From positions 1,530,001 through 1,562,000 of the forward strand of contig NC_008312.1 in assembly GCF_000014265.1 (NCBI RefSeq): DNA of 32,000 nucleotides, in the 5' to 3' direction. Positions 1,676-32,000 of this stretch are shown one piece after another. This DNA is from Trichodesmium erythraeum IMS101 (GTDB taxonomy: Bacteria > Cyanobacteriota > Cyanobacteriia > Cyanobacteriales > Microcoleaceae). The notes beneath the pieces were generated by a model. It worked only from the letters and a program-made list of their open reading frames with translations, was not told the origin of the DNA and ran no database searches. Position 1 is the stretch's first letter. Each line of letters begins with the position of its first letter. Position numbers and translations under genes: made by a program.

Positions 1676-3391
1676 ATGGACAACTATATATTACCAACTT
1701 TAAGTGACATTTTTGCCTCAGAAAAGTCAAATATTGATGTTTATGCAACAAAAATGGAACTGTCAAAAGAAAATTACCCTCCTTCCATAACAGAGAAAAA
1801 TAAAGATTTATATTTAAAGGCTCAAAAGGAATGGTATAGTGCTGTTGCTACGATTAATCAACTGCTAGAAAAGTTAGTAAGAACCTCAGATTCTCAAGAT
1901 TTAAAAAATCAAGAAATAACAAAAACTTACAAACAGAAAGAAATTAAAAAAACTACTCCTGTACTAGAAAATTGGGAATCTCAAACTAGATCAAAATTCC
2001 CTACTTCTAATTCCTTGCTTTCTCATCTCAAATCATATCATGGATTAGTATTATCTGGTATGACTCCTGTGTTAACAAATCCTGCTTTAACTAGCAGTTT
2101 TTATACTTCAGTATTTACCAGTAAAATATCAGAATCTTTAGAATGGTTATCCATGTTTAGATGGCAAAGCTTACCTTTGTTACCACCAGCAGATCATATT
2201 AATTCTTTACCTGCTGCTATACCAATATTACCTTTATCCACTAAAGACCCGATAACAAATGAACAGTTTTGTTTAGTTTTAACTGCTGAATTTAGTTTGA
2301 TTATGGTCTTAGGAAAAAACCAAGATAATACACCAGCTTTTCTATTTTCTTTTGAGCCAGAAATAGTAAAAAAAGCATGGCTTGTCTTACAGCAACGAAG
2401 AGTATTACCAAAATATTTTGATTTCAATAATCTTGATAAGTATCAAAGTTTTATTCACCAATATTCTCAAAAGTTAGCTATTTTAGATGATATTTTTGAG
2501 CAGTTTTTACCTGTAGCTCCTGACTACAAAATAGTGATGGAGTTTAGCCGCTTATTATTATCTAATTTACCAATTACAGATACTAAAAATGAAACATTAG
2601 AAGTCAATATTTATAACAAAAATGGAGAAAAGCAAGAAGCTACTACATCACTAAAATCTACTATTGAAAATCTCAAGTCTCCTGATGTGGAATTGTTACA
2701 GGCGATCGCTCACGAAGTTAAAACTCCTTTAGCAACAATTCAGACTTTAACCCGCCTTTTATTAAAACGTCTTAATCTAAATCAGGAACTAATGAGAAAA
2801 CATTTACAAATGATTGATACTGAATGTACTTCTCAAATAGAACGCTTTAACCTGATTTTTAGAGCGGCAGAATTAGAAAATCAGCAACCTTTAAAAGAAC
2901 AACATCCATATTTACAATTAACAAGTATTCCTCTGGCTCAAGTATTTAAAAATAGCATTCCCCGTTGGCAACAAAAAGCAACTCAAAGAAATCATACTTT
3001 GAAAGTTATTTTACCTCCAAAAATGCCAAGTATCATTAGCGATCCTACTATGCTTGACCAAGTATTAGGAAATTTGATTGAAAATTTCTCCCGTAATTTA
3101 GCCCCTGGCAGTCTTATAAAGGTGGAAGTAATGTTAGCTGGTAGTCAACTAAAATTACAGCTTAAGTCTGATTCTGATATTGGTGAAAAAAGTTCTTCAC
3201 CTTTTACTAATTACACAAAAACACCTTTGAAATCTATTGGTCCTTTATTAATGTTTCAACCAGAAACAGGTAGTCTTAGTTTAAATTTAAAAGTGACTAA
3301 AAATTTGTTTCAAGCAATAGGAGGAAAATTAGTGGTTCGACAAAGACCAACTAAAGGGGAAGTAATGACTATTTTCTTGCCAGTTCAATAA
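1676..3391 (+). CDS. Sensor histidine kinase, orphan, with an N-terminal ~340 aa of unknown type
   Basis: 571-aa ORF starting at ATG. The H-box is ELLQAIAHEVKTPLATIQTL (His346, codon 2711-2713). An N-box-like QVLGNLIENFSRN follows, and the C-terminal end is ...KGEVMTIFLP. The G1/G2 glycine boxes look degenerate. No response regulator gene is adjacent. Confidence 0.8.
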   Translation: MDNYILPTLSDIFASEKSNIDVYATKMELSKENYPPSITEKNKDLYLKAQKEWYSAVATINQLLEKLVRTSDSQDLKNQEITKTYKQKEIKKTTPVLENWESQTRSKFPTSNSLLSHLKSYHGLVLSGMTPVLTNPALTSSFYTSVFTSKISESLEWLSMFRWQSLPLLPPADHINSLPAAIPILPLSTKDPITNEQFCLVLTAEFSLIMVLGKNQDNTPAFLFSFEPEIVKKAWLVLQQRRVLPKYFDFNNLDKYQSFIHQYSQKLAILDDIFEQFLPVAPDYKIVMEFSRLLLSNLPITDTKNETLEVNIYNKNGEKQEATTSLKSTIENLKSPDVELLQAIAHEVKTPLATIQTLTRLLLKRLNLNQELMRKHLQMIDTECTSQIERFNLIFRAAELENQQPLKEQHPYLQLTSIPLAQVFKNSIPRWQQKATQRNHTLKVILPPKMPSIISDPTMLDQVLGNLIENFSRNLAPGSLIKVEVMLAGSQLKLQLKSDSDIGEKSSSPFTNYTKTPLKSIGPLLMFQPETGSLSLNLKVTKNLFQAIGGKLVVRQRPTKGEVMTIFLPVQ

Positions 3392-6954: not shown

Positions 6955-8265
6955 ATGGTTAAAGCGATGAAAGTTACTTTGTTACAACGTTATCAACAAT
7001 TATTAGATAAGTTAAATAATTCTAATACTCCTCTATCAGAAAAGGATGTTTTAGATATTTTATTGGCTAGAGATGCTATTTCTAAGGCTTTATCTAGTAA
7101 GGTTATACCTGATGCTTCTGTAATCTTGAAAATTCAAGAATTAGATGAGAAACTTAAACAGAATTCTGAGAAATTGATTCAATCTATTAATTTGGCTAAA
7201 TATCGAAATAATTTCCCTAGGTTGCCTAATTCTTGGTGGTGGGATTTGGATATTTATGTTCAGGAAAAAGCGAGAAAGTCTCACCCTTGGAATCGTTTTG
7301 ATGGGTTTATTAGAGTTATTAGAGTTATAGTTTGGACGGGAAATTTAACTCTTTTGGGAACTTTGGCTAGTCTTTTTCTGAATAGTGCTTCTGGGTTAGG
7401 GGGTGCTTTGACTATTGCTATTCCTAGTATTTTATCGTTACTTCAAGCTCAAAGTGAGTTAACAGAAACGGGAAAAAAAGGGTTTGATAAAGTTTTACAA
7501 GTGGTGAAAATTCCTCAACATTTTCATGAGGAGGCAAAGTTGGTTTCTAGTTTATTGATTACAGGATTTTTGTTAAGTATTTGGTTGAATTTACCATCTA
7601 TTTCTAATGGCTACAAACTGACTGGTCAAAAATTAAGAGAACAGGAAAAGTTAGCGGCGGCAGAAGAGAATTTTTTACAGGCAATTAAGTTGAATAATGA
7701 TAATTTAGATGCTCGTTATAAGTTGGCAAAAGTTTATGAAGAGTTACAAGATTTGGAGAATGCTAAAAAACAATATATAGTTGCGGCTAAAGCTGGGTTT
7801 GTGGATGCCTATAATAATCTTGCTTATTGGTATATTCAGGAAAATAAGAATGAGAAAGGGATAGATTTGTTGAAACAGGGTTTGCAGCTTTTAGAGCAAA
7901 AGGAAAAGAATTTTGAGAGGTTAACAGATGTAGAAAAGAGTGATTTAAGAACTGAACAATATAGTATATATAAAAATTTAGGATGGGCAAGGTTTCAACA
8001 ACAGCGATATGATGATGCTATTGATTATCTTTTGCCGGCAATGGCAATTGCTAAAAATTCTAAATATCAGAAGTATATCCGAAACCCAGGGGCGGCTTTT
8101 TGTATCTACAGTAAAATTTTGTCAAAGACAGATCAACTATCTTCTAAAGTGAAAGAAAATTGGCAACAATGTCGTCAATTAATTGAACTTCGTCTAGCTG
8201 GAGGTGATACTATTTCTTCTGAAGAAGATGGATGGTTATATGAAGCTAAACAACTATTAAATTAA
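6955..8265 (+). CDS. Membrane protein with an N-terminal coiled region, about 3 hydrophobic segments and C-terminal TPR-like repeats
   Basis: 436-aa ORF. Hydrophobic stretches are VIRVIVWTGNLTLLGTLASLFL, GGALTIAIPSILSLL and LVSSLLITGFLLSIWLNL. TPR-like helices include AEENFLQAIKLNNDNLDARYKLAKVYEELQDLENAKKQY. It is the first gene of a same-strand cluster with 8888-9967 and 10186-13833. Confidence 0.7.
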   Translation: MVKAMKVTLLQRYQQLLDKLNNSNTPLSEKDVLDILLARDAISKALSSKVIPDASVILKIQELDEKLKQNSEKLIQSINLAKYRNNFPRLPNSWWWDLDIYVQEKARKSHPWNRFDGFIRVIRVIVWTGNLTLLGTLASLFLNSASGLGGALTIAIPSILSLLQAQSELTETGKKGFDKVLQVVKIPQHFHEEAKLVSSLLITGFLLSIWLNLPSISNGYKLTGQKLREQEKLAAAEENFLQAIKLNNDNLDARYKLAKVYEELQDLENAKKQYIVAAKAGFVDAYNNLAYWYIQENKNEKGIDLLKQGLQLLEQKEKNFERLTDVEKSDLRTEQYSIYKNLGWARFQQQRYDDAIDYLLPAMAIAKNSKYQKYIRNPGAAFCIYSKILSKTDQLSSKVKENWQQCRQLIELRLAGGDTISSEEDGWLYEAKQLLN

Positions 8266-8274
8266 CTAGTCTTA

Positions 8275-8387
8275 TGTTAGGTTTTAGGTTTTAGGTTTTG
8301 GGTTTTAGGTGTTAGGTTTTAGGTTTTAGGTGTTAGGTTTAGGTATTAGGTATTAGGTATTAGGTGTTAGGTTTTAAGTGTTAGGTT
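8275..8387 (+). repeat. Heptanucleotide tandem array (TTAGGTN, about 15-16 units), STRR-like
   Basis: Read directly: gttaggttttaggttttaggttttgggttttaggtgttaggttttaggttttaggtgttaggtttaggtattaggtattaggtattaggtgttaggttttaagtgttaggtt. It starts 10 bp after the stop codon of 6955-8265. Confidence 0.9.
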
Positions 8388-10185: not shown

Positions 10186-13100
10186 ATGTTTACAAAAATC
10201 CTTGGCAAAAATTACTTAGTCAAAACTTGGTTGATAGCTATTCTTGTTATTAATGGGTTAGAAGTTTTAGTTATGCAGGTTGGAAGGGCTGAGAATTTTG
10301 TCTTATCACAACAACCATTAACAACAGAGGCAACTGAAGAGCAGATAATTAATGGGACTCGCAATGAAAAAGGTAAACAGGGAAGTTATAAGCTAAGTTG
10401 GCGACAGGCTTCAGCTAAAGAAGAGTCTCTTACTTTTGCTACAGAACTTAATGACGAAGCTTTTGAACTATATAAACAAGGTAAATATGATGAAGCAGTT
10501 CCTTTATTAGAGCAGTCTTTGAAAATTAGGCTGCAGTTGCTGGGTGCTGAACATCCTGATGTTGCCACCTCCCTCAATAATTTGGCTTTTCTTTACCAAC
10601 GTCAAGGAAGGTATACAGAAGCGGAACCATTGTATATACAAGCATTAGATATGATAAAGAAGCTCCTTGGTGCTGAACATCCATTAGTTGCGACCTCCCT
10701 CAACAATTTGGCAGAACTTTACAGAGTTCAAGGAAGGTATACAGAAGCGGAACCTTTGTATCAACAAGCATTAAAGATGAGAAAGAAGCTCCTTGGTGCT
10801 AAACATCCTGATGTTGCCACCAGCCTCAACAGTTTGGCTTTACTTTACAAAGATCAAGGAAGGTATACAGAAGCGGAACCTTTGTATATACAAGCATTAG
10901 AGATGAGAAAGAAGCTCCTGGGTGCTGAACATCCTGATGTTGCCTCCAGTCTCAACAATTTGGCAGAACTTTACAGATCTCAAGGAAGGTATACAGAAGC
11001 GGAACCTTTATATCTACAAGCATTAGAAATGACAAAGAAGCTCCTGGGTGCTGAACATCCTGATGTTGCCTCCAGCCTCAACAATTTGGCAGGACTTTAC
11101 AAAGATCAAGGAAGGTATACAGAAGCGGAACCTTTATATCTACAAGCATTAGAGATGAGAAAGAAGCTCCTGGGTGCTGAACATCGATATGTTGCCTCCA
11201 GCCTCAACAATTTGGCTTTACTTTACAGAGTTCAAGGAAGGTATACAGAAGCGGAAGCATTGTATATACAAGCATTGGAAATGGATAAGAAGCTCCTGGG
11301 TGCTGAACATCCTGATGTTGCCACCAGCCTCAACAATTTGGCTTTACTTTACTCAGATCAAGGAAGGTATACAGAAGCGGAACCTTTGTATATACAAGCA
11401 TTAGAGATATTTAAGAAGCTCCTTGGTGCTGAACATCGATATGTTGCCTCCAGCCTCAACAATTTGGCAGGACTTTACAGAGTTCAAGGAAGGTATACAG
11501 AAGCGGAACCTTTGTATGTACAAGCATTGAAAATGTGGAAGAAGCTCCTGGGTGCTGAACATCCTGATGTTGCCACCAGCCTCAACAATTTGGCTTTACT
11601 TTACAAAGATCAAGGAAGGTATACAGAAGCGGAACCATTGTATCAACAAGCATTAGATATGAGAAAGAAGCTCCTTGGTGCTGAACATCCTGATGTTGCC
11701 ACCAGCCTCAACAATTTGGCAGGACTTTACAGAGTTCAAGGAAGGTATACAGAAGCGGAACCTTTGTATGTACAAGCATTGAAAATGTGGAAGAAGCTCC
11801 TGGGTGCTGAACATCCTGATGTTGCCACCAGCCTCAACAATTTGGCTTTACTTTACAAAGCTCAAGGAAGGTATACAGAAGCGGAACCTTTGTATATACA
11901 ATCATTAGAGATGAGAAAGAAGCTCCTTGGTGCTGAACATCCTTCTGTTGCCCAAAGCCTCAACAATTTGGCAGCACTTTACTATTATCAAGGAAGGTAT
12001 ACAGACGCGGAACCATTGTATCAACAAGCATTAGAGATGAGAAAGAAGCTCCTTGGTGCTGAACATCCTGATGTTGCCATCTCCCTCAACAATTTGGCTT
12101 TACTTTACTCTGCTCAAGGTAACATTGCCTCAGCAGTCCAATACCTTGAACGCGGCTTGGAAGTTCAAGAAAAAAACCTAACTTACAACTTAGCCGCCGG
12201 TGCTGAACCTCAAAAAGAAAAATATCTCGAAACTATCTCAGGAGCCAAGGATAGATCCATCTCTCTCCATCTGCAAATAGCACCAAATAATCCAGCCGCC
12301 ACCACTCTAGCATTAACCACCGTCCTACGCCGCAAAGGTCGCCTCCTCCAATTCTTAACCGCCAGCAGAAAAATACTCCGACAACAACTTGACCCTCAAG
12401 GACTACAATGGCTAGATGAACTTGATAGTATTAATAGTCAACTTTCCACTCTACTCTATAACCGACCGGAAAATCTCCCTCTAGAAACCTATCGTGATAA
12501 TTTTGCCAAATTAAAACAACAGGCAAATGAACTAGAAAACAAAATTAGTCGTCGTAGTAGGGAGTTTCGGACTTCGACCCAACCTGTAACCTTAGAAGCT
12601 ATTCAGCAGTTGATACCCGCCAACGCTGCCTTAGTAGAGTTTATACAGTATTATCCTTTTGACCCCAAGACAGAGACATGGGATGATCCACGCTATGGGG
12701 TTTACGTTCTGAATGCAGAGGGAGAACCCCAAGGCATCGACCTGGGAACAGTTGAAGAAATTAAATCAGACCTAGACAAATTTAGAGTTCTTCTAAAAAA
12801 GAAAAGAGCCCCTTTAGAGAAGCTTAAAAAAACCGCTAGAGAACTTGACGAAAAACTAATGCAACCTGTACGTCAATTAATAGGTTCAAAGGAACAAATT
12901 CTAATTTCTCCTGATAGTCATCTTAACCTAATACCTTTTGAAGCTCTAGTAGATGAAAATAATCAGTATTTAGTAGAAAACTATAGTATTACCTATCTCA
13001 GCTCAGGACGTGACTTACTTCAATTGACTACTAAAGCCAGAAAAACATCACCAGCGTTATTGTTAGGAGACCCAAATTATGAAAAAAAAGACAAAATTGC

Positions 13101-13833
13101 TACTGAGCGTGGTTTCAATAAAACATCTTCTAATATAGTATTAGGAAGACTATTAAAAACTGCTGATGAAGTCAAAGCCATAGGAAAATTACTAGGAGTT
13201 AAACCTTTGCTACGAGGAGCAGCCACTGAAAAAGCTATCAGGCAAGCACAAAATCCTTTTATATTACATATAGCTACCCATGGTTTATTTCAAGAATTTG
13301 AAGAAAAAGCTCAAAACCCTGGAGAACTGCCTATCATAGGGAGAAAATCCCTACTACGATCAGGTTTAGCTTTGGCTGGGTTTGAGGAAGAAAATATAGT
13401 AGGAGATAATAGTGTTCCGCCAGAATTAGAGCCAAAAGAAACAGACGAAGACAATGGTTTTTTGACTGCTTTAGAAGCCACAGGATTAAAATTACTAGGC
13501 ACAGAGCTCGTAGTGTTATCAGCTTGTGACACAGGGAGGGGGGGAATTAGTCCCGGAGAGGGAGTTTATGGACTACGAAGAGCCTTTTTTATTGCCGGTT
13601 CCCAGAGTCAGGTCATTAGTTTATGGCAAGTTGATGATGAAGGCACAAAAGACTTAATGGTCAAGTATTATCAACGTCTGTTAGATGGAAATATAGGACG
13701 AACAGAAGCCTTAAGGAAAACTCAACTCGAGATGCTGAGGGGAGAAGCAGGAGAAAACTACAGTCATCCCTATTATTGGGCTAGTTTTATTCCTTCTGGA
13801 AATTGGCAACCAGTTCCTCCAAGATTAAAATAG
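10186..13833 (+). CDS. Protein with 13 TPR units and a CHAT domain (caspase-fold peptidase-like), with an N-terminal hydrophobic leader
   Basis: 1215-aa ORF. There are thirteen 42-aa TPR_12-type units (RYTEAEPLY.QAL.M.KKLLGAEHPDVA.SLNNLA.LY..QG). The C-terminal CHAT signature is ILHIATHG (His1032, codon 13279-13281) and VVLSACDTGRG (Cys1114, codon 13525-13527), followed by YYWASFI. The N-terminus LVKTWLIAILVINGLEVLVMQVG is hydrophobic. Confidence 0.9.
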   Translation: MFTKILGKNYLVKTWLIAILVINGLEVLVMQVGRAENFVLSQQPLTTEATEEQIINGTRNEKGKQGSYKLSWRQASAKEESLTFATELNDEAFELYKQGKYDEAVPLLEQSLKIRLQLLGAEHPDVATSLNNLAFLYQRQGRYTEAEPLYIQALDMIKKLLGAEHPLVATSLNNLAELYRVQGRYTEAEPLYQQALKMRKKLLGAKHPDVATSLNSLALLYKDQGRYTEAEPLYIQALEMRKKLLGAEHPDVASSLNNLAELYRSQGRYTEAEPLYLQALEMTKKLLGAEHPDVASSLNNLAGLYKDQGRYTEAEPLYLQALEMRKKLLGAEHRYVASSLNNLALLYRVQGRYTEAEALYIQALEMDKKLLGAEHPDVATSLNNLALLYSDQGRYTEAEPLYIQALEIFKKLLGAEHRYVASSLNNLAGLYRVQGRYTEAEPLYVQALKMWKKLLGAEHPDVATSLNNLALLYKDQGRYTEAEPLYQQALDMRKKLLGAEHPDVATSLNNLAGLYRVQGRYTEAEPLYVQALKMWKKLLGAEHPDVATSLNNLALLYKAQGRYTEAEPLYIQSLEMRKKLLGAEHPSVAQSLNNLAALYYYQGRYTDAEPLYQQALEMRKKLLGAEHPDVAISLNNLALLYSAQGNIASAVQYLERGLEVQEKNLTYNLAAGAEPQKEKYLETISGAKDRSISLHLQIAPNNPAATTLALTTVLRRKGRLLQFLTASRKILRQQLDPQGLQWLDELDSINSQLSTLLYNRPENLPLETYRDNFAKLKQQANELENKISRRSREFRTSTQPVTLEAIQQLIPANAALVEFIQYYPFDPKTETWDDPRYGVYVLNAEGEPQGIDLGTVEEIKSDLDKFRVLLKKKRAPLEKLKKTARELDEKLMQPVRQLIGSKEQILISPDSHLNLIPFEALVDENNQYLVENYSITYLSSGRDLLQLTTKARKTSPALLLGDPNYEKKDKIATERGFNKTSSNIVLGRLLKTADEVKAIGKLLGVKPLLRGAATEKAIRQAQNPFILHIATHGLFQEFEEKAQNPGELPIIGRKSLLRSGLALAGFEEENIVGDNSVPPELEPKETDEDNGFLTALEATGLKLLGTELVVLSACDTGRGGISPGEGVYGLRRAFFIAGSQSQVISLWQVDDEGTKDLMVKYYQRLLDGNIGRTEALRKTQLEMLRGEAGENYSHPYYWASFIPSGNWQPVPPRLK
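10483..12120 (+). repeat. 13 tandem 126-bp coding repeats (the TPR units of the CHAT protein)
   Basis: The 126-bp periodicity is visible in the DNA. Blocks such as aggtatacagaagcggaacc and ctcaacaatttggc recur 13 times. A 159-bp stretch is identical between 11450-11608 and 11702-11860. Confidence 0.95.
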
Positions 13834-15004: not shown

Positions 15005-15634
15005 TCAAAGAATAGCAATATCAGGAATTTCACCGGAAAAATCTTGGACCTTATCAAATTTGAACGGACCGCTATTTGACCCCCAGATTTTTTCATGAGT
15101 ATTGACATCATAACCTGTATCTCTGCTAGTCCAGGTTTTTTGAGTAACTTTCACTTCACTAACTAAATAAGTCATTGAACCATCCCCACGAGGAATTAAA
15201 CACTTATGACCAGGTTCAACTCCTCCTACAAAAGTATCCCCTTGACGTTTGAAAATCATTGCACACCCTTTACGAAGTTCAATGTTATCAGGAGTAAGGG
15301 TTGCCAGAATTTCCAAATCTTGTCCCGCCCCCGTATGCAAGTCTGGATCTTTTAGGGCATAATTTTCGACCCTAACACTATCCCCTTGAGGAATAACTCG
15401 TTTGACAAACTGATAATGAGGATGCCAAGGATCGTGATCATAAATCTCCTCAGAATAAAAACCTATCCCACCAAAAAAATCATACGGTAAGGGACGGAAA
15501 AAGATACGAATATGAGGATTAGTTCGAGCATCTTCTAAAGTGTATTTGATACTACTATATTCACCAGCCAACCAACTGGCTAATGTAATAGCTTGACTTA
15601 CATTTTCTTGTGTTTTAAAATTTGAAGTTATCAT
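15005..15634 (-). CDS. cpeT: T-type bilin lyase (CpcT/CpeT family)
   Basis: LASWLAGEYSSIKYTLEDARTNPHIRIFFRPLPYDFFGGIGFYSEEIYDHDPWHPHYQFVKRV matches the CpcT/CpeT (DUF1001) N-terminal pattern recalled from memory. The length is about 209 aa and the context is PE. The track start is TTG 15640. ATG 15634-15632 is likelier. Confidence 0.8.
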   Translation of the reverse strand: MITSNFKTQENVSQAITLASWLAGEYSSIKYTLEDARTNPHIRIFFRPLPYDFFGGIGFYSEEIYDHDPWHPHYQFVKRVIPQGDSVRVENYALKDPDLHTGAGQDLEILATLTPDNIELRKGCAMIFKRQGDTFVGGVEPGHKCLIPRGDGSMTYLVSEVKVTQKTWTSRDTGYDVNTHEKIWGSNSGPFKFDKVQDFSGEIPDIAIL

Positions 15635-15700
15635 AACCAAAAAAAGTTTGTTTTATAATTTTGCCAATTACAAGTTTTTGAGTTTTAATACCTAAATTAA

Positions 15701-17066: not shown

Positions 17067-17372
17067 TTATTTATTATCAGTGGCACCAGCTTCCCGAAGA
17101 ATATTTTCCATCTCTTTTAAATTAAGTTTTTTAGCATATTTTAAAGGACTATAGCCCCAGTCATTTACTGCATTGACATCTGCCCCTTTCTCTAGCAACA
17201 ACTTGACTACTTCTTTGTAATTACGTGAAACTGCCCTCATTAAAGAGGTAGCATTTTCCTTGTCTTTGACATTAACATCAGCACCCTGCGTAATTAGGGA
17301 TCTGACTAATTCTAGCTTCCCTTCTTTACTAGCTTGCAAGAGGGCTTCATTTAGGTCATCAGTATCACTCAT
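17067..17372 (-). CDS. Small ankyrin-repeat protein (about 2-3 ANK units)
   Basis: The 101-aa ORF contains LELVRSLITQGADVNVKDKENATSLMRAV..NYKEVVKLLLEKGADVNAVNDWGYSPLKYA, the canonical ANK consensus (G.T.L..A...G....V..LL..GADVN). It is on the same strand as the PE alpha-like gene and 145 bp downstream of it. Confidence 0.85.
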   Translation of the reverse strand: MSDTDDLNEALLQASKEGKLELVRSLITQGADVNVKDKENATSLMRAVSRNYKEVVKLLLEKGADVNAVNDWGYSPLKYAKKLNLKEMENILREAGATDNK

Positions 17373-17517: not shown

Positions 17518-18024
<507 letters not shown>

Positions 18025-18091
18025 TTAAAAATTGTAAAAATTGATAAAGCACAAAAAAATAAAAAATATATGAACGAAAAATTCTTGGATT

Positions 18092-18649
<558 letters not shown>

Positions 18650-19117: not shown

Positions 19118-19912
19118 ATGGGCAATTTAGCCTTATCAGCAACTTTAGGATTAGATGCTTTTGAAGTTGAACCATTAGAGTTGCGTTCTAATTTTACAGA
19201 AGATGACTTACAAACTGTTATTCGAGCGGTCTATAAACAGGTATTAGGAAATGAATATATGATGGAAAGCCAACGTCTTCACAGTCCAGAAGCTCTGTTG
19301 AGAAATGGATCCATTAATGTACGTGAGTTTATCAGAGTTGTGGCCAAATCACCTTTGTATCAGTCTCTCTTCTTTCATAGTTCTTCCCAAAACCGATTTA
19401 TTGAACTCAACTTTAAACACCTTTTAGGTCGTCCTCCTCTCGATCAAGCGGAAATTAGTGATCATGTTTTAATATATCGCGAGCAAGGATATGATGCGGA
19501 AATAGATTCTTACCTTGATAGTAATGACTATATTAATAGTTTTGGAGAAGATATTGTTCCTTATCCTCGTCAGATAAAGAGCCGACGTGGGATGAAGACG
19601 GAAAGTTTCAATCGGACATTTTCTTTATTAAGAGGACCAGCTACAAGCGATCGCGATCGCAGTGCCAAATTAATTTCCTCTTTAGCTGCTAATTTAGCAA
19701 CTCCAATCAAAGCACCAGCAGTTGGTAACGGAGCAGCTTCCAGCAATACATCTAAATCTTTCCTGATCGAGTTTTTATCTCGTACTGCTGATGCCAGGCT
19801 GAATCGTCGTGGGAAAAGAAAAAGGGTCGTTACCTATTCTCAAATGAACCAACAAGTTCGCAATATTCACAGAAGTGGTGGTAAAATTGTTAAGATAACT
19901 GAGTTAGTTTAA
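19118..19912 (+). CDS. Phycoerythrin-associated rod linker polypeptide (CpeC/CpeD/CpeE class)
   Basis: The PBS-linker domain pattern is present: VIRAVYKQVLGNEYMMESQRL...LRNGSINVREFIRVVAKSPLYQSLFF...QNRFIELNFKHLLGRPP.DQAEISDHV.IY.EQGYDAEIDSYLDSNDYINSFGEDIVPYPR. A C-terminal CpcD-like domain follows: RVVTYSQMNQQVRNIHRSGGKIVKITEL. It is divergent from the PE beta/alpha pair. Confidence 0.85.
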   Translation: MGNLALSATLGLDAFEVEPLELRSNFTEDDLQTVIRAVYKQVLGNEYMMESQRLHSPEALLRNGSINVREFIRVVAKSPLYQSLFFHSSSQNRFIELNFKHLLGRPPLDQAEISDHVLIYREQGYDAEIDSYLDSNDYINSFGEDIVPYPRQIKSRRGMKTESFNRTFSLLRGPATSDRDRSAKLISSLAANLATPIKAPAVGNGAASSNTSKSFLIEFLSRTADARLNRRGKRKRVVTYSQMNQQVRNIHRSGGKIVKITELV

Positions 19913-20925: not shown

Positions 20926-20980
20926 AAAAATCAAAATATAATTTATATAACGTTTGATACTGATTTTATGAAGCAGTCTA

Positions 20981-21107
20981 ATAAAATAGAAAATAGTAGT
21001 CAGTAACAAGCAAAATAATTGCTTTTATTAAAATAGGGCTGTTTGAAATTAAGTAGTATGATAAAATAGAAAATAGTAGTCAGTAACAAGTCAAATAATT
21101 GCTTTTC
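20981..21107 (+). repeat. Two direct copies of a ~46-bp unit, 80 bp apart, with a partial MITE 5' end between them
   Basis: ataaaatagaaaatagtagtcagtaacaag(c/tc)aaataattgctttt occurs at 20981-21026 and 21061-21107. Between the copies, tagggctgtttgaaattaag resembles the MITE start tagagttgtttggaattaag. Confidence 0.8.
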
Positions 21108-21146: not shown

Positions 21147-21287
21147 TAGAGTTGTTTGGAATTAAGGAAGAAAAATGGCTAAAACCCTTATCAGTTAAAG
21201 TCTATAGTGTTTTTTTGCCTAAAACTATGAAAATATTATATAGTAAGCATTTGAGTATGTTACATTTTCACATACCAAACAACTCTA
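21147..21287. mobile_element. MITE-like element with perfect 13-bp terminal inverted repeats
   Basis: TAGAGTTGTTTGG at 21147-21159 is matched by CCAAACAACTCTA at 21275-21287. It is 141 bp long and homologous to 3769-3921 and 3923-4065. It ends 22 bp before ATG 21310. Confidence 0.75.
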
Positions 21288-21309
21288 TTTTTGTTAGAGG
21301 AACTTAATA

Positions 21310-22242
21310 ATGAAACAAATGACAACCATTGAAACTTCCCAAATGAGTAATTATGATGATCGCATTATTGAAATTGAGGTGACAGGAGTCTGTCGTCAAG
21401 ATTTTAAACGGGTCAGTACTTACAAAAAGAAAGTTTCTCATAAGCGTATGAATGAAGCACTGCGAGAGATTTATTCTTTAGGAGGAAAAATTGTAAGCGT
21501 TACATTGTTAGGAGAATCAACAGCAACTCAGCCACCAGTTGAGACTTTAGAGGAATCAACAGCAACTCAGCCACCAGTTGAGACTTTAGAGGAATCAACA
21601 GCAACTCAGCAGCCCGTTGAGACTTTAGAGGAATCAACAGCAACTCAGCAGCCCGTTGAGACTTTAGAGGAATCAACAGCAACTCAGCCACCAGTTGAGA
21701 CTTTAGAGGAATCAACAGCAACTCAGCCACCAGTTGAGACTTTAGAGGAATCAACAGCAACTCAGCCACCAGTTGAGACTTTAGAGGAATCAACAGCAAC
21801 TCAGCCACCAGTTGAGACTTTAGAGGAATCAACAGCAACTCAGCCACCAGTTGAGACTTCAGAGGAATCAAAAGCAACTCAGCAGCCCGTTGAGACTTCG
21901 GAGGAATCAAAAGCAACTCAGCAGCCCGTTGAGACTTCAGAGGAATCAACAGCAACTCAGCAGCCCGTTGAGACTTCGGAGGAATCAAAAGCAACTCAGC
22001 AGCCCGTTGAGACTTCGGAGGAATCAACAGCAACTCAGCAGCCCGTTGAGACTTCAGAGGAATCAACAGCAACTCAGCAGCCCGTTGAGACCGACGTCAC
22101 ATTGTCGAAGAAATCACCAGCAAATCAGCAGCCCGTTGAGACCGACGTCACATTGTCGAAGAAATCACTTGCAAATAAGCAGCCAGTTAAGAATAAGGGT
22201 AAAAGAAGAGGGAAGAAAAAAACAGCTAAAAAAGATCTTTAA
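21310..22242 (+). CDS. CpcD-like (small rod-cap linker) domain protein with about 15 tandem 13-aa acidic repeats and a polybasic C-terminus
   Basis: The N-terminus DDRIIEIEVTGVCRQDFKRVSTYKKKVSHKRMNEALREIYSLGGKIVSVTLLGE fits the CpcD domain (..RMN.....I...GGKIVS...). Compare the C-terminus of the linker at 19118-19912 and, from memory, the N-terminus of cyanobacterial FNR. Then come ESTATQ(P/Q)PVET(L/S)E in 14 full units plus a partial one, two TDVTLSKKS.AN.QPV units, and the tail KNKGKRRGKKKTAKKDL. Confidence 0.75.
   Translation: MKQMTTIETSQMSNYDDRIIEIEVTGVCRQDFKRVSTYKKKVSHKRMNEALREIYSLGGKIVSVTLLGESTATQPPVETLEESTATQPPVETLEESTATQQPVETLEESTATQQPVETLEESTATQPPVETLEESTATQPPVETLEESTATQPPVETLEESTATQPPVETLEESTATQPPVETSEESKATQQPVETSEESKATQQPVETSEESTATQQPVETSEESKATQQPVETSEESTATQQPVETSEESTATQQPVETDVTLSKKSPANQQPVETDVTLSKKSLANKQPVKNKGKRRGKKKTAKKDL
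21514..22191 (+). repeat. Tandem coding repeats: 14.8 copies of 39 bp followed by 2 copies of 51 bp
   Basis: The unit is gaatcaacagcaactcagccaccagttgagactttagag. The variants are cagccacca/cagcagccc, tta/tca/tcg and aca/aaa. The 39-bp units span 21514-22089. The 51-bp units accgacgtcacattgtcgaagaaatcac... lie at 22090-22140 and 22141-22191. Confidence 0.95.
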
Positions 22243-22439
22243 ATAATTGGTCAACTATTTGTGTGTTTATCCCTAAATTCACTTAAGTCTCAGTCTTGGC
22301 CTTTAAACTAAGAAGCTAATAAATTTAATATTTGTCTTTGACACAAGCACAGCAATAGGGTGGGCAAGACTTGTTACCCCTACCCCAGGCCTCTCCTCTA
22401 GAGATTAGGGGAGAGTTTTTTTTATAAAAGTCCTTAACA

Positions 22440-23318: not shown

Positions 23319-23792
23319 TCAAGATTTTAATAATTCTACCATATCAGAATAATTGTATTTTTGAGCCATAATCAATGCCGTTAAACCATTCTCTTCCTGA
23401 ATATCTTTTCGGGCTTTATTTTCTAGCAACACTTGCACTGTGTCAGGATGATTATGGGCAACAGCCATCATTAAAGCAGTCCATCCTCGAGCATCTTGAA
23501 CATTAATATTTGCTTCATATTCAAGAATAGTTTTAACTGTTACAGTATGACCAAAAGAAGCGGATGCTTGTAAGGCTGTAACACCATATTTATCGGCAGC
23601 ATTAATATCTGCTCCTAGAGCTAGCAGAATTTTAACGGTGGCAGTTTCTCCTTGTCGAGCCGCCCACATCAAAGCTGTCCTATTAAAGATGATGTCTGTA
23701 GCATCTATATTATCAGCTTGTACAAGCAAAGTTTGTACTAGATCAACATGACCCTTTTTAGCCGCTTCTATCAATTTATCATTGGTATCCAT
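23319..23792 (-). CDS. Ankyrin-repeat protein (about 4 ANK units)
   Basis: The 157-aa ORF contains KLIEAAKKGHVDLVQTLL, NRTALMWAARQGETATVKILLALGADINAADKYGVTALQASASFGHTVTVKTILEYEANINVQDARGWTALMMAVAHNHPDTVQVLLENKA and GLTALIMAQ. Its stop is 21 bp upstream of the start of the lyase gene 22440-23297 on the same strand. Confidence 0.9.
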   Translation of the reverse strand: MDTNDKLIEAAKKGHVDLVQTLLVQADNIDATDIIFNRTALMWAARQGETATVKILLALGADINAADKYGVTALQASASFGHTVTVKTILEYEANINVQDARGWTALMMAVAHNHPDTVQVLLENKARKDIQEENGLTALIMAQKYNYSDMVELLKS

Positions 23793-23897
23793 TTTTCCTA
23801 TTCATTTATAAGTTTAAGTTGGTAGTATTTGTAGCTAATTCCTTGAATTAACTTATACCATTTATCCAAAACTTTTCACCTCGGATATTGAAAGTAG

Positions 23898-23925
23898 GTA
23901 GAGATGCTGCATGAAACATCCCTAC
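23898..23925. repeat. Small dispersed hairpin repeat (GTAGAGATG...CATC.CTAC type), copy 1
   Basis: gtagagatgctgcatgaaacatccctac. The arms GTAGAGATG and CATCCCTAC pair with one mismatch. Copies 2 and 3 are at 25231 and 26655. Confidence 0.6.
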
Positions 23926-25230
23926 TGTCAGAAGAATAATTAACATTAACTTGCAATTGAGAAAGCCAAGAAGGCTGGGAGCGGTGCTCAAAAGCTTTAA
24001 AAGCATTAATAAAGGATTTAGGAACATAATGGTCAAAAAAGATGAGGCTTAATATTGTCAACAATGATTGTCTAATGACAGTCATTAATGTATGTACCAT
24101 AAACATTTAAAAAGTCAATTAAAGTTGAATGTTTAGTTAATATTGAAAATTTGAATTTATCATTCTTGAAGATCGATGAATACCTTTAGAAACTCTGGCA
24201 AATAATTAAGCAATAATACTTATAAATTCCTAAACCAAATCTTAACTACCTGTCTTAACGAACTAATATTAACCACTCTACTTGTCTTAAATATGAGCTT
24301 GTGCATTCACTCTCATAAGTTAATTTTTATTACTTTTGCTACTTAATTGCTTGACAAAATTGCAAAAAACATTGTTGAAAAAAAATCCATCCTTTTGTTT
24401 TGCAGTAGAGATGGTTGACTTAATAAATCAATGATAGTATTCACCTTTTGGCATTAGGCCATGAGAAGAGCGCCGATGCACCCAATTTGATTGAGCCATA
24501 ATTAGGGGAAGAGATTGCTCACCAATGGACAAAAAGTTTTATCTTTCATCAGACAATCTCTAAACTTATAGCACAAATGTTTGAGGGAGTTAATTTTGTA
24601 AGTCTGAAAAAACCCATCTATGACATAAAAATCTTTGACCTGTTCTTTCCCCTTAAGAATCAGATAATTTATACACCAAATTCGTGCAACGTGCAAAAAC
24701 CTTGGGGTGGAAGGTGTGAACAATATTGTTATGTATTTGCTGATTTTTGCGTCTATGGCGAAGTAAGTAAAATGATTCAAGTTTTTGGTAAAAATTTGTT
24801 GGAAATGGAAGAAAGCTTAACAATTTGGGAAGATTTGTTGGGATTAAATGGGTACATTGCCTGAAAATGTGTAGGACTTCCTGAAGAGACCCAGTGGTAT
24901 TTTTACAAGCTATATTTCAGAGGAGTTAAAGGTCAGGGGATTAATTTATTTGAGCAAGAAGTTCTGAATTATTTAAAATCAAAGGGGAAAAATTATGTAG
25001 AACAATACTTTTCTGAAATAGAGCAGCGGTTTTCCGAAGTCTATAAAAACTACAACAGTATACCTGAGTAGTTGTGGCAAAAGATTCAGCTAGTCTTGGA
25101 ACAGGAGAAAGAAAGTATCTCAACTCTAGGTAAACAAAAAAATACAACATCAAAACTTACCGTTTGCTTAAGTTTTTCAGGAATGATTTTCAAAAAATGT
25201 TACACACTTTACCCTATATTGTAAAAAATA

Positions 25231-25258
25231 GTAGAGATATGTCTAGGAATATCTCTAC
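25231..25258. repeat. Small dispersed hairpin repeat, copy 2
   Basis: gtagagata-tgtctaggaa-tatctctac has a perfect 9-bp stem. It lies 92 bp upstream of the cpeY start. Confidence 0.6.
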
Positions 25259-25349
25259 AAAGGTTTTAGTGTATCTTTATGCCCCAAACTGCTATATGAT
25301 TTATTCAATCAAGAAATTAATTGTTGATTGTAATTAACATAGACTGAAA

Positions 25350-26627
25350 ATGGATAAGCGTTTTTTCAATATATTTCCTGGATTAACTGAAGAAAAAGCA
25401 ATTGCTTTGTTAGAAACACCTCTAGAAGAATTAGAAGATAAATCAGACCGTTATATTGCAGCTAGTCATTTAGTTAATTTTCCTAGCGAACGATCAATTA
25501 ATGCTTTAATTAAAACTATACAAGATACAAATCCTGTTTTAGAACAAAAAATTGCTAGACGTAAGGCGATCGAAACATTGGGGCGTTTAAATGTGGTATC
25601 AGCATTGCCCACAATTCGATCTTGTTTGGGTGATGCGGACTGCTACACTACAGAAAATGCTGTTTGGGCAATTGGCGAAATAGGCACTGAAGACCAAGAA
25701 ATTCTGGCAGAAATTGCTCAGTTGTTGGAAAAACCTGATCAAAGTTATCGTTTGATTATTCAGGTGTTAGGAAAGTTTAACTATAAACCTGCAATAACTA
25801 AGATTCAGCAGTTTACAGAATATGATGACAAACCTATTGCTAGTGCAGCGATCGCTACTATTTGCCGTTTAACGGGGGACTACTCACAAATAACAAAGGT
25901 GGTGGAGTTTTTACAGCACTCTAGTGTTAATGCTAGGCGGGGTTGTATTCAAGATCTGATTGATACTAAATATTATAAGTCGATTCCAAATATTGCAAAA
26001 TGCCCTGTATCCATGGTTTTTCGTCTCCGGGGCATTAGACTTTTAGCACAAGCAGGTATTCCCACAGGTGAGATTAACTTTGCTGAAATTGAACCCTTTT
26101 TAGATTCAGTTATTCGCGACCATCCCAATGATTTAGAATTAGTTCACGAATATGACCAAGCTCCAGCCTTAGAATTTGTGATTAAGGAATTATATAGTAC
26201 AGATTTTGGTAGGTGTTATTTAGCTAGTAAGACTCTTTTGCAACATTTTGATCCAGAAGTTACAGGTGCAACATTAATGGCAACTTTTGCAGAAAGTGCC
26301 CATAATGATTATGGTGCTCACTATCATGTAGTTAAACTTTTAGGTTGGCTTAAATATGTTGATGCTTATGATTTGTTGGTAGAAGCACTTTACAATAAAG
26401 CACCTCAGTTTCAAAAATCTCGTGGTGCTGCTGCACTTGCTCTGGCAAATTTGGGAGATGAGCGATCGATACCTTTGCTTAGAAAAACTATCAGTGATAC
26501 AAGAATTTTTGATTTGAAATATGCTTGTTTATTGGCATTAAGACAGTTAGGAGATAGTCAGACTGCTAAGGTGCTTGTTGATGATTCAGATTTATTGATT
26601 CAAACTAAAGCCAAAAGTATGATTTGA
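25350..26627 (+). CDS. cpeY: Phycoerythrobilin lyase subunit CpeY (large HEAT-repeat E/F-type lyase)
   Basis: 425 aa. The N-terminus MDKRFFNIFPGLTEEKAIALLETP...SDRYIAASHLVNFPSERSINALI...RRKAIETLGRL...DCYTTENAVWAIGEIGT matches CpeY as I recall it from Fremyella/Synechococcus. The size of about 430 aa is typical. Confidence 0.85.
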   Translation: MDKRFFNIFPGLTEEKAIALLETPLEELEDKSDRYIAASHLVNFPSERSINALIKTIQDTNPVLEQKIARRKAIETLGRLNVVSALPTIRSCLGDADCYTTENAVWAIGEIGTEDQEILAEIAQLLEKPDQSYRLIIQVLGKFNYKPAITKIQQFTEYDDKPIASAAIATICRLTGDYSQITKVVEFLQHSSVNARRGCIQDLIDTKYYKSIPNIAKCPVSMVFRLRGIRLLAQAGIPTGEINFAEIEPFLDSVIRDHPNDLELVHEYDQAPALEFVIKELYSTDFGRCYLASKTLLQHFDPEVTGATLMATFAESAHNDYGAHYHVVKLLGWLKYVDAYDLLVEALYNKAPQFQKSRGAAALALANLGDERSIPLLRKTISDTRIFDLKYACLLALRQLGDSQTAKVLVDDSDLLIQTKAKSMI

Positions 26628-27474: not shown

Positions 27475-28111
27475 TCAAAAGTTAATATTTAAACGATGAT
27501 AAAATCGGTAGAGTAATCGATTATATTTATCAATCTCCCCAGTTGCCTCATTTACCCCCAAATGGAGCTTACGCCATGTCCGACCTAAGCCCACACCATG
27601 AATTCTTGTTTTCCATTCTCCCTTGCCATACACTTTTACTCCCGTAGAGTCTACTACCAGGTGTATGGCTTCTGTTGTTAGTAATATCCGTATCTTGATG
27701 TTCAGTTTACTCAAGCGACGACACAAAGTACTATGCTCTGGGACTGGTAAGTCTATTCCCATCAATTCAAATATAGATTCCAAGAAACCCTCAGTTTGTC
27801 CTCCTGCCAAACTAAACAAAGTAGCAAGGGTGGCCATTAGCTTGGCGGGGGACATTGCTATAGGTGTTGGATGCTCCCCTAAGTCCAGTTTTATTCTGAT
27901 TGAGCCACTGTTCTATCACTTCCTGACTCAACCAAAATGTGAGACTGCCCCTGGGCTTTAAGGAGGCATCATCCATAAGACCAATTACTTACCCGGGGTA
28001 TGAGATTTGGACTTAGACTTGGAGTTAGATTGAGACTTACTCATTGGTACAGTTTTTTGTGCCATACTCTACTATTTTTACCCTAAACATCATCTTTTGT
28101 GCAACAAAGCC
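27475..28111 (-). mobile_element. 3'-truncated, frameshifted IS5-family (IS903-like) element
   Basis: The end repeat GGCTTTGTTGCACAAAAG is the reverse complement of 28094-28111. From ATG 28044 the frame reads MSKSQSNSKSKSKSHTPGK*. Shifted frames then give ..FWLSQEVIEQWLNQNKTGLRGASNTYSN.., followed by the track ORF 27475-27855: ...EGFLESIFELMGIDLPVPEHSTLCRRLSKLNIKI...IHLVVDSTGVKVYGKGEWKTRIHGVGLGRTWRKLHLGVNEATGEI. Homology stops before the later catalytic residues and there is no second end repeat. Confidence 0.7.
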
Positions 28112-28172: not shown

Positions 28173-28764
28173 CCTAAAGTCCGACTACACATAATGCTTC
28201 AAGAATAAAATCATATCCTGTACAAGAAGCAATATCTTTTTGACTAAATCCAGTTAATATATTTCTCAGGATTCTGCGTCAGAAATCTAAGGAATCGAAA
28301 ACTCGATTTTTCAAGAATTTTTTCACCTCTTTCCACAGTCTTTCAATGGGATTAACTTCGGGACAATAAGGAGGTTGAAATAATAAAATGATGTGATCAG
28401 GGATAGATAAATCATTCCCTAGATGCCCTCGCCCGTTATCTAGTTGAATAATATGAATCTCTTCAGGATATGTTTGAGAAAAAAGCTCTAAAAATCTTTC
28501 AAAGCAAGGAGTATCTAGATGACTAAATTCATAAAAAAAGGAATCTCCTGTTTTTGGTTCTACTAAACCATAAAGCCATAGATATTTAAATAGCCATTGA
28601 TATAAACCAATGGGCTTAACACCGCAAGCAGTAATGACTTTACCTGTTATAGTTTTTAATCCAATTCTAGTCTCGTCTTGACACCAATAGCGAATTGGCA
28701 GTTGATTTTCCGAATATTTATTAATTAACTTAATTTTCTCTTCTAGTTGAGATGAGAGTTTTTT
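28173..28764 (-). pseudogene. IS630 transposase DDE part (orfB), in the -1 frame relative to orfA, with a premature TGA
   Basis: The frame reads KKLSSQLEEKIKLINKYSENQLPIRYWCQDETRIGLKT...IHIIQLDNGRGH...LLFQPPYCPEVNPIERLWKEVKKFLKNRVFDSLDF*RRILRNILTGFSQKDIASCTGYDFILEALCVVGL*. The DDE residues lie in QDE, LDN and NPIE. An in-frame TGA at 28279-28281 cuts off the last ~35 codons. Confidence 0.7.
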
Positions 28765-29246
28765 TTAAAGTTTTCTTGAGCTTCTTTATTTTGTTTTATG
28801 TGATTTGGACGTGGAACTTTTAATTTACTTTTTAATTTATATCTGACTAATTGATGAACTGTTCGATAAGACAGCTCGATGTCAAAACAAGTCGTTAACC
28901 ACTGTTGAATTTCACCATAGCTTTGGAAACCTTCCGGGTTTTGCAATTCTGCTTCTAATTTCTCGATTACATTTGGTGGAATTGAACTTGGCCTCCCTCC
29001 TAGATTTTTCTTTGGTTCTAGTAAAAGATTCAGTCCACCTGTACGATATTTCCCTAACCATTTTTGTACTGTGACTCGATTGCGTCCTAACATTATCGCA
29101 ATTTCTTTTACTGTTTCTACTGTTTGAGTTTTCAACCAGTAAATAGTTTGAAGTCTTTCCTTTTCTTGAGCTGTACTCGCACTTTTTAAAAGTTTTTTGA
29201 GAGTTTCTACCGATTCATTTATCTCAATTTTTACTACTCCTGACAT
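28743..29246 (-). CDS. IS630 transposase, N-terminal HTH part (orfA)
   Basis: The 167-aa ORF reads ...TVETVKEIAIMLGRNRVTVQKWLGKYRTGGLNLLLEPKK.LGGRPSSIP...SYRTVHQLVRYKLKSKLKVPRP, the typical IS630 double-HTH region. It ends just after an A8 run (28759-28766). Confidence 0.8.
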   Translation of the reverse strand: MSGVVKIEINESVETLKKLLKSASTAQEKERLQTIYWLKTQTVETVKEIAIMLGRNRVTVQKWLGKYRTGGLNLLLEPKKNLGGRPSSIPPNVIEKLEAELQNPEGFQSYGEIQQWLTTCFDIELSYRTVHQLVRYKLKSKLKVPRPNHIKQNKEAQENFKKNSHLN

Positions 29247-29924: not shown

Positions 29925-30536
29925 TTAACCAGGGTGAGATTTAAACTTCAACATATCCAAGCGAGATAAAGCACCATTAGCAACTTCCCTTACATAGGTA
30001 TCAGCAGATTCATCATTTCCCAATTTGGTTAATATTTCTATTGAGCGATCATCATCAATAGAGCTAACAGCATTAATAATTGCTACTGCTAAGCCTACAT
30101 TATCAGTCTGATCAAGAACTTCTAGTAAGGTATCTAAAGCAGGCACACCAATAACCCCTAAAGCCATTGCCGAAGTAATCTGAACAACCGGATGAGAGTC
30201 ATTGAGTCCTTCCTTTAAACCCTTAATACCTTCGGAAGGAAAGGGAATATCCTTATAGTTATAAGCTATCTGAGCTAGAGCTTTAGCACAACTGCTTCTA
30301 ATAGTTGAATTATCACTCTTGAGCAATGAATCTACTAGAAGTGGTATAGTATCTATCCCAATAGCTCCTAGTGTCTTAACTGCTGCTCGCCGATAGACTG
30401 TATTTTCTTCTGCCAAAATTCTCATTAAGCGAGGAATAGTCGTTTCATCCCTAGTTTCAGTTATTTCCCGCATTGCTTGATCGCGCAAGCCAGGATCAGG
30501 ATATTTGAGTTGTTCAAATAATGACGGTTCTGTCAT
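29925..30536 (-). CDS. cpeZ: HEAT-repeat lyase subunit/chaperone-like protein CpeZ
   Basis: 203 aa. SLFEQLKYPDPGLRDQAMREITETRDETTIPRLMRILAEENTVYRRAAVKTLGAIGIDTIPLLVDSLL..DN.TIRSSCAKALAQIA matches CpeZ as I recall it. It lies downstream of cpeBA on the same strand. Confidence 0.8.
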   Translation of the reverse strand: MTEPSLFEQLKYPDPGLRDQAMREITETRDETTIPRLMRILAEENTVYRRAAVKTLGAIGIDTIPLLVDSLLKSDNSTIRSSCAKALAQIAYNYKDIPFPSEGIKGLKEGLNDSHPVVQITSAMALGVIGVPALDTLLEVLDQTDNVGLAVAIINAVSSIDDDRSIEILTKLGNDESADTYVREVANGALSRLDMLKFKSHPG

Positions 30537-31194: not shown

Positions 31195-31704
<510 letters not shown>

Positions 31705-31760
31705 CTATATAAAAATAGATTGGATCAAAAGGTTAGCTCTTAGATTTCAATTAGGTGATT

Positions 31761-32000
<240 letters not shown>

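Follow-up and report, generated by a model that had tools for sequence, protein, structure and literature searches.

Tery_0986 of Trichodesmium erythraeum IMS101, an extreme and recently expanded variant in a widespread family of phycoerythrin-operon CpcD paralogs

Identity and Repeat Structure of Tery_0986

The window analyzed here, a stretch of 32,000 nucleotides from the Trichodesmium erythraeum IMS101 genome (contig NC_008312.1, positions 1,530,001 to 1,562,000), carries a phycoerythrin (PE) gene cluster, and within it a complete open reading frame (ORF) of 310 amino acids (33.9 kDa; isoelectric point, pI, 4.5) that starts with ATG and occupies 21310..22242 of the plus strand. The ORF was identified as Tery_0986 because the published gene order agrees with that of the window: CpeT of strain IMS101 is Tery_0979 (PMC2408579), and a supplementary table lists Tery_0983 and Tery_0984 as phycobilisome proteins, Tery_0985 as “Phycobilisome linker polypeptide” and Tery_0986 as “CpcD phycobilisome linker-like” (Q117F8; PMC6411698). 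In every T. erythraeum proteome sample of that study the protein was recorded, with 6-22 spectral counts, which is similar to ApcC, the small core linker (16-27), and about 5-fold lower than the neighboring rod linker (PMC6411698). The gene is therefore already annotated and its protein is made, and Tery_0986 is a real, expressed gene of T. erythraeum; the first-pass annotation of this DNA had held that the lack of any peptide would speak against the gene, and the protein was found throughout.

The ORF consists of a small N-terminal domain (amino acids 1-68, pI 9.5; 21310..21513) and a tail of 242 amino acids. The tail begins with a tandem array of 39-bp (13-amino-acid) units at 21514..22098, with 14 full units and a 15th that continues into the first of two 51-bp (17-amino-acid) units (22060..22161; ES/KS-xANQQPVETDVTLSK), which are homologous to units found in Trichodesmium sp. 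MAG_R02 (MAG, metagenome-assembled genome) and Okeania SIO2B3. A degenerate last unit and a polybasic C-terminal tip (KSLANKQPV KNKGKRRGKKKTAKKDL; 22162..22239) follow, so that the protein ends in KNKGKRRGKKKTAKKDL. Tandem Repeats Finder reported 14.8 copies of the 39-bp unit (21514-22091, 96% matches, 0 indels) and 2.6 copies of the 51-bp unit (22061-22192). Units 1-8 read ESTATQ(P/Q)PVETLE, with the variable pair in the order PP, PP, QP, QP, PP, PP, PP, PP when split in register; units 9-14 read ES(T/K)ATQ(P/Q)PVETSE, with K for T in units 10, 11 and 13; and the pair of 17-amino-acid units after the array reads …ANQQPVETDVTLSK-KS. The earlier description of this repeat (14 full units and a partial one, two longer units, ETLE and ETSE blocks, a polybasic end) agrees with ours in every detail.

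The 13-amino-acid array has a net charge of -42, and the last 18 amino acids of the protein have a charge of +8.7. With a net charge of 0.215 per residue, a mean hydropathy of 0.38 and 11% proline, the array falls on the disordered side of the charge-hydropathy boundary, in line with the disordered acidic spacer and basic end first proposed for it. As a coil, the tail was computed to have a root-mean-square end-to-end distance of about 12 nm, and its contour length is about 87 nm. For comparison, phycobiliprotein disks are about 6 nm thick. The tail would yield detectable tryptic peptides, e.g., ATQQPVETSEESK, and further ones are SPANQQPVETDVTLSK and ATQQPVETSEESTATQQPVETSEESK; peptides of the N-terminal domain include IIEIEVTGVCR and EIYSLGGK.

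The N-Terminal Domain Is Predicted to Adopt a CpcD Fold

Residues 1-70 alone matched the Pfam family PF01383 with 30.6 bits, above the gathering threshold of 27 bits, and the whole protein with its low-complexity tail scored 26.9 bits, just below it; the match covers amino acids 22-65 (21373-21504). A profile of ten orthologs searched against solved structures recovered CpcD (7sc8_BN, E = 1.9e-6; 7veb_Y, E = 4.4e-6) and also matched the N-terminal parts of FNR. The AlphaFold (AF2) model of the domain, built on a 33-sequence family alignment, has a predicted local distance difference test (pLDDT) score of 74.9 and a strand-strand-helix-strand order (E19-27, E36-43, H44-56, E60-67). The top 43 Foldseek matches of this model in the PDB are all phycobilisome small-linker domains, which in the solved structures all sit inside phycobiliprotein rings, and the best of them (8hfq_m, TMq 0.69) comes from FNR, whose CpcD-like domain there occupies the distal end of a CpcL rod. 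Among close orthologs, 27 positions of the domain are invariant. Residues 1-68 are thus firmly predicted to adopt the CpcD/PF01383 fold, and the CpcD-like nature first ascribed to this region is borne out by family profile, structure profile and model.

The fold does not make the protein one of its named relatives. The NCBIfam CpcD equivalog NF058509, with a cutoff of 80 bits, gave the domain 36.9 bits and the full-length protein 31.2 bits, and it matched all 33 sampled family members weakly (best E = 1.4e-14); as Tery_0986 falls below this cutoff and lies in the cpe cluster, not in a cpc operon, we rejected its identity with canonical CpcD. Identity with the long isoform of FNR (FNR_L) was rejected as well, since FNR models matched residues 1-116 only, with 25-28 bits against cutoffs of 600-635, and Pfam and NCBIfam searches of Tery_0986 found no FAD/NADP-binding reductase domain. 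The same searches found no DNA-binding domain.

Position in Phycoerythrin Operons

The window agrees with the placement of the gene in a PE cluster by the first-pass annotation. On the minus strand lie cpeB (18092-18631; NCBIfam equivalog, 305 bits) and cpeA (17518-18006; 286 bits), CpeT is encoded at 15005-15640 and CpeY at 25350-26627, and several HEAT-repeat lyase-like genes are present. Directly upstream of Tery_0986, on the same strand, Tery_0985 (19118..19912) encodes a 264-amino-acid PE rod linker with PF00427 and a C-terminal PF01383 domain.

We compared the window with 15 other loci from Trichodesmium, Okeania, Symploca, Crocosphaera, Prochloron-type genomes, Pleurocapsa, Waterburya and Oscillatoria, in which the PE genes were located by tblastn and gene calls. 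In all 16 the gene of this family stands immediately 3' of the last PE rod-linker gene, and in seven it is followed next by cpeS, cpeT and a putative cpeR. The full order cpeC-cpeD-cpeE-[family gene]-cpeS-cpeT, followed by an ORF of about 100 amino acids, was found in Pleurocapsa PCC 7319, Waterburya, Oscillatoria SIO1A7 and the Prochloron-type genomes. This last ORF is separate, conserved, 101-113 amino acids long and without a Pfam match (loci L015-L017 and L019-L021), and from its position it is presumably cpeR. The family gene itself was rejected as CpeR, given that it precedes cpeS and that the separate 101-113-amino-acid ORF follows cpeT. This constant place makes the family a fixed part of PE linker operons, distinct from CpeR.

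Some loci differ in what precedes the family gene. Two tandem genes for 264-amino-acid PE linkers stand 5' of it in MAG_R02, Okeania SIO2B3 and Symploca (tandem pairs at L005 3778-5423, L007 4021-5751 and in L010-L012), and a single such gene in the window and in the T. thiebautii-type loci. In Crocosphaera watsonii WH 8501 the PE cluster, including the family gene, is carried by plasmid pCW2 (53.8 kb; L013 4355-11553). A MAG labeled Prochloron sp. (L015 1686-9495) contains the full string of PE linkers, the family gene and cpeS-cpeT-cpeR. The genus Prochloron is noted for having no phycobilisomes, so that either the name was applied loosely or PE rods have been retained in this lineage.

The Family and Its Tails

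A profile search detected 152 family members among 1.84 billion cluster representatives (33 at E <= 1e-10), and a broader profile recovered 482 proteins, which carry generic names only (“rod-capping linker protein”, “phycobilisome linker polypeptide”). Most of the proteins found combine an N-terminal domain with a low-complexity tail, contrary to the first-pass statement that FNR offers the only comparable layout. The open-access literature that we found neither names nor describes the family. We conclude that these PE-operon CpcD paralogs form a widespread, uncharacterized family of which Tery_0986 is an extreme, recently expanded variant.

Of the members retrieved, 257 carry the domain N-terminally, and tail statistics were computed for these; 182 have 15 or more amino acids in the tail and 44 have fewer than 10. 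K, S, A, E, T and P abound in the tails, internal repeats are present in several, and the spacers between domain and C-terminus cannot be aligned; nevertheless, 135 of the 182 longer tails (74%) have at least five K or R among their last 12 residues. Such a Lys/Arg tip, conserved behind spacers that cannot be aligned, points to selection on the tip. Since polybasic tips are this common, the earlier view of the architecture as unique does not hold. At 242 amino acids the tail of Tery_0986 is the longest low-complexity tail of the sample (the next has 164). No transmembrane-like stretch (at least 15 hydrophobic residues in a window of 18) was found in any of the family tails, which led us to reject a CpcL-like membrane anchor. 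One further protein, P0037 (284 amino acids; L021 17827-18267), represents another architecture of cap domain plus payload besides FNR.

History of the Tail in Trichodesmium and Okeania

The ortholog of Trichodesmium sp. MAG_R02 has 155 amino acids, among them four units of 17 (ESQANNQPVKTDVPLKE), and terminates in QANNKSKVRSGKRRKKK. In Okeania SIO2B3, one unit (ESQANNQPVETDA) precedes a stop, past which SKTEEKKAKK can be read in frame. In the T. thiebautii-type loci (Tara contigs, MAG_R03 and MAG_R04) the product has 70 amino acids only: the codon that opens the tail, CAA, has become TAA, and the DNA past this stop reads, in frame, ES*VDNQS*QVSEKRRKKNLKND (asterisks denote stops), which matches the last unit and basic tip of MAG_R02 codon for codon. 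The relic of the basic tail behind the CAA-to-TAA change and a second stop can be read in locus L001 at 8205-8290 (also in L008 and L009) as ES*VDNQS*QVSEKRRKKNLKNDRSK*.

When the units are aligned, removal of 12 bp from the 51-bp unit gives the 39-bp unit of the window. The most economical history of these sequences would begin with an ancestor of the Trichodesmium/Okeania clade that had the domain, one unit and the basic tip; duplication of the 17-amino-acid unit would have come next, the T. erythraeum lineage would then have lost 12 bp and so gained the 13-amino-acid unit, and this unit would finally have been amplified to about 15 copies in two sub-blocks by a process of the replication-slippage type. 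The recent, stepwise amplification that had been read from the array at first sight is supported.

A T. erythraeum MAG from the Great Barrier Reef covers the locus with a gap of 100 Ns within the array. It shares with the window, without any difference, the final array unit, both 17-amino-acid units, the basic tip and the 3' flank, and on its resolved 3' side it has two more units than the window. The order of units differs between the two strains, and both this order and the truncations in relatives are read from short-read assemblies of a repeat.

Flanking Elements and Other Features of the Window

In the alignment with the T. thiebautii-type locus, the only upstream block conserved is the approximately 35 bp before the ATG, including a GAGG (21297..21300, plus strand) that is a putative ribosome-binding site. 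Further upstream, a 141-bp element (21147..21287) is bounded by 16-nt inverted repeats (21147-21162 and 21272-21287, 94% complementary and 109 nt apart) and ends 22 bp before the ATG. It had been taken for a miniature inverted-repeat transposable element; the inverted repeat and its distance from the start codon stand, and mobility gains nothing from the window, in which no second full copy of 21147-21287 was found. One other exact match to a 20-mer of an arm was found in the metagenome collection, at a locus that shares only about 27 nt. The upstream spacer of 1.4 kb, which is about 950 bp longer than its T. thiebautii-type counterpart and largely unalignable with it, also contains a 59-nt direct repeat (20968-21026 and 21048-21106, 90% identical, 80-nt spacing).

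Downstream, a terminator-like hairpin of 11 pairs with a T-run (about 22391..22425, plus strand), a consensus match only, stands between Tery_0986 and a convergent HEAT-repeat gene. The count of such sites is not above the shuffle expectation, and neither was the promoter scan.

Elsewhere in the cluster, two ankyrin-repeat genes are present (17067-17372 and 23319-23792), and the one that encodes 157 amino acids is kept at the same position in the T. thiebautii-type loci with 83% identity. In the T. thiebautii-type locus a gene for a 225-amino-acid phycobilisome linker and psaK lie between the ankyrin gene and cpeY (L001 10846-11865); tblastn found neither in the window (compare 23792-25350), and gene content here therefore differs between the species. 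Between cpeY and a second PE set, the cluster is broken by fragments of a DDE transposase and of a helix-turn-helix protein (27475-27855 and 28743-29246). The second PE alpha/beta pair (31195-32000) is 65-72% identical to cpeA/cpeB at 17518-18631 and has its own HEAT-repeat gene (29925-30536). Immediately 5' of the PE cluster lies a gene for a 1215-amino-acid protein with tetratricopeptide repeats and a CHAT domain (10186-13833).

Interpretation of the Tail and Alternatives

[quoted passage not shown] On this view the terminal PE hexamer would have its open, core-distal face plugged by the domain, in the way that phycocyanin rods are closed by CpcD and by the CpcD-like domain of long FNR, and the tail would leave the rod end as a disordered chain. 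The tip would then touch an acidic surface, most plausibly the anionic lipids of the thylakoid or the acidic outside of neighboring phycobiliprotein disks, and this contact may act as a weak electrostatic tether or cross-link. Inflation of the spacer would always proceed in multiples of three bases and so keep the basic tip in frame.

Several points weigh against this reading. The protein was detected in whole-cell proteomes, from which its placement on the PE rod can only be inferred, and the counts are given at the level of the protein, so that domain, tail or both may be their source. The spacer of charge -42 beside a tip of about +9 could neutralize the tip within the molecule, and the binding partner of the tip is purely conjectural. 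The tail is cut by stops in the T. thiebautii-type loci and in Okeania, and it is absent from the Symploca, Crocosphaera and Prochloron-type members. Even within the species it is not always intact: two independent T. erythraeum-like metagenome contigs, L024 and L025, encode an N-terminal domain whose amino acid identity is 99-100% (in L025, 203 of 204 bases agree), and yet L024 has a TTA-to-TAA stop in array unit 3 (3280-3336), and the array of L025 (1460-1585) has one TAA, then TGA twice, and diverged unit codons (CAA CCA). The stop-bearing unit of L025 has itself been duplicated, which indicates that the dynamics of the array go on without coding constraint.

Judged from these loci, the tail appears dispensable, and truncated members, tail-less members and stops within the array together argue that its length is not under strong selection. 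As the tail is truncated in sister lineages and in some conspecific alleles, its extreme length in T. erythraeum is probably near-neutral and not the product of tuning. Of the first-pass picture of a hyper-extended tether, the FNR-like topology remains reasonable (no structure matched better than FNR's CpcD-like domain on a rod end), and a selected design is unlikely because of the nonsense truncations in relatives and the unit order that differs between strains. Truncation in close relatives had also been named as a sign that would turn the gene into a pseudogene; it was found in part for the tail and not for the domain.

These same observations lead to the main alternative, in which only the 68-amino-acid domain matters and the tail is a functionless minisatellite, selfish or neutral, that is tolerated because an acidic, disordered chain would be harmless outside the rod. 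The nonsense truncations, the duplicated stop-bearing units of L025, the changed unit order of the Great Barrier Reef MAG and the many members with hardly any tail (44 of 257 below 10 amino acids) are all expected under it, and every reading frame of the array is open, so that openness alone is uninformative. Against it speak the Lys/Arg cluster that ends 74% of the tails of at least 15 amino acids across distant cyanobacteria and the two independent expansions (51 bp, four copies, in MAG_R02; 39 bp, 15 copies, in the window), both of which run in frame into a basic tip. As both unit lengths are multiples of three and the tip has stayed in frame both times, it can be argued that the tail was translated during expansion. 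We regard a functionless tail as unlikely on balance, though as a serious contender.

In a regulatory or assembly role, the protein might be a competitor for rod ends and thereby keep out FNR or stop rod elongation, or it might bind nucleic acid through its basic tip and co-regulate the PE genes. Nucleic acids are known ligands of polybasic tails, cpeS, cpeT and cpeR adjoin the gene in many operons, and its abundance, about 5-fold under that of the neighboring rod linker, would suit such a role. The putative cpeR is a separate ORF after cpeT, however, and Tery_0986 has no DNA-binding domain; its sole fold is that of the phycobilisome small linkers, whose solved cases lie inside phycobiliprotein rings. 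A regulator is therefore improbable.

That the 13-amino-acid repeats form an ordered stack of beta-hairpins, i.e., a rigid acidic rod in place of a random coil, is suggested by one of five single-sequence AlphaFold models, which has regular short strands in residues 71-256 and reaches a pLDDT of about 80-88 in most of the array. Mean pLDDT values of the remaining four are 39-46, perfect repeats are known to give over-confident repeat folds, and a charge of -42 over 195 residues, with 11% proline, low hydropathy and family spacers that cannot be aligned, does not fit a stacked rod. The beta-hairpin model is regarded as an artefact of the repeat, and we give an ordered rod very little credence. 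Least credible of all is an expanded-repeat pseudogene or a tail left untranslated in the IMS101 genome, as truncated alleles in related populations and the lack of the exact 310-amino-acid product from the protein collection might suggest, because the ORF is unbroken from the conserved ribosome-binding site and ATG through the basic tip, the protein was detected in every proteome sample (PMC6411698), and the final unit, the 17-amino-acid units and the basic tip of the Great Barrier Reef MAG are identical and still in frame.

For genome scans, the lesson is that the striking repeat tells least about Tery_0986, whereas domain, basic tip and place in the operon are what is conserved. Such hyper-expansion is probably not adaptive in itself, and the interest of the finding lies mainly at the level of the family. 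Drawings of PE rods usually show no dedicated cap, and the descriptions of PE rods in the literature that we found list linkers of the CpeC/D/E type only. A conserved and expressed CpcD paralog in PE linker operons, in most cases with a disordered, basic-tipped tail, would be an overlooked component of the antenna, with possible roles in rod termination, antenna-membrane contact or antenna packing. A much bolder and doubtful extension, to which we give little weight, would make the family a class of PE-rod distal “tether” linkers whose tip couples rod ends to the thylakoid or to neighboring antennae, with the repeat-prone spacer as an evolvable ruler; T. erythraeum would then be the extreme case, and the repeated losses would reflect other ways of packing thylakoids or phycobilisomes. 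In any case Trichodesmium, a globally important nitrogen fixer, offers a natural series of tails (a single unit, 4 x 17 amino acids, 15 x 13 amino acids and nonsense-truncated alleles), and the 39-bp array could serve as a strain marker.

Comparison with Known Systems

Among known proteins, CpcD (L_R 8.9) is the best sequence match among solved structures (7sc8_BN, E = 1.9e-6), and it shares with Tery_0986 the PF01383 fold, the small size of the domain and a gene at the end of a string of rod-linker genes. Tery_0986 differs in its location in the cpe cluster and in a tail with a polybasic tip, for which the solved CpcD chains (70-83 amino acids) are too short. A topological counterpart is FNR_L (PetH), which likewise carries a CpcD-like domain at its N-terminus and a flexible C-terminal extension that leaves the distal rod end; Tery_0986, in contrast, has no FAD/NAD-binding enzyme domain, ends in a short basic peptide and not in a folded domain, and belongs to a PE operon. 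The same fold, placed in the central cavity of phycobiliprotein rings, recurs in ApcC (L_C 7.8) and in the C-terminal PF01383 domains of CpcC and CpeC-D-E. In the rod linkers it is fused behind PF00427 and in ApcC it belongs to the allophycocyanin core, whereas in Tery_0986 it is stand-alone and N-terminal.

The 13-amino-acid acidic units rich in Thr, Glu, Pro and Val resemble the N-terminal repeats of lysostaphin (PF25533). Kinship was rejected, since the score is 35.5 bits against a cutoff of 60 and the likeness to this unrelated, secreted staphylococcal pro-enzyme is one of low complexity; the resemblance is most likely convergent.

The rod-membrane linker CpcL and the core linker ApcG, the latter with a disordered charged region, also combine a phycobiliprotein-binding module with an extension that is thought to contact the membrane or a photosystem. 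CpcL does so by a hydrophobic C-terminal helix, which is present in none of the family tails, and ApcG binds the core, not rod ends, and is not known to contain PF01383. The likeness of Tery_0986 to these two proteins is one of description, and no homology is claimed.

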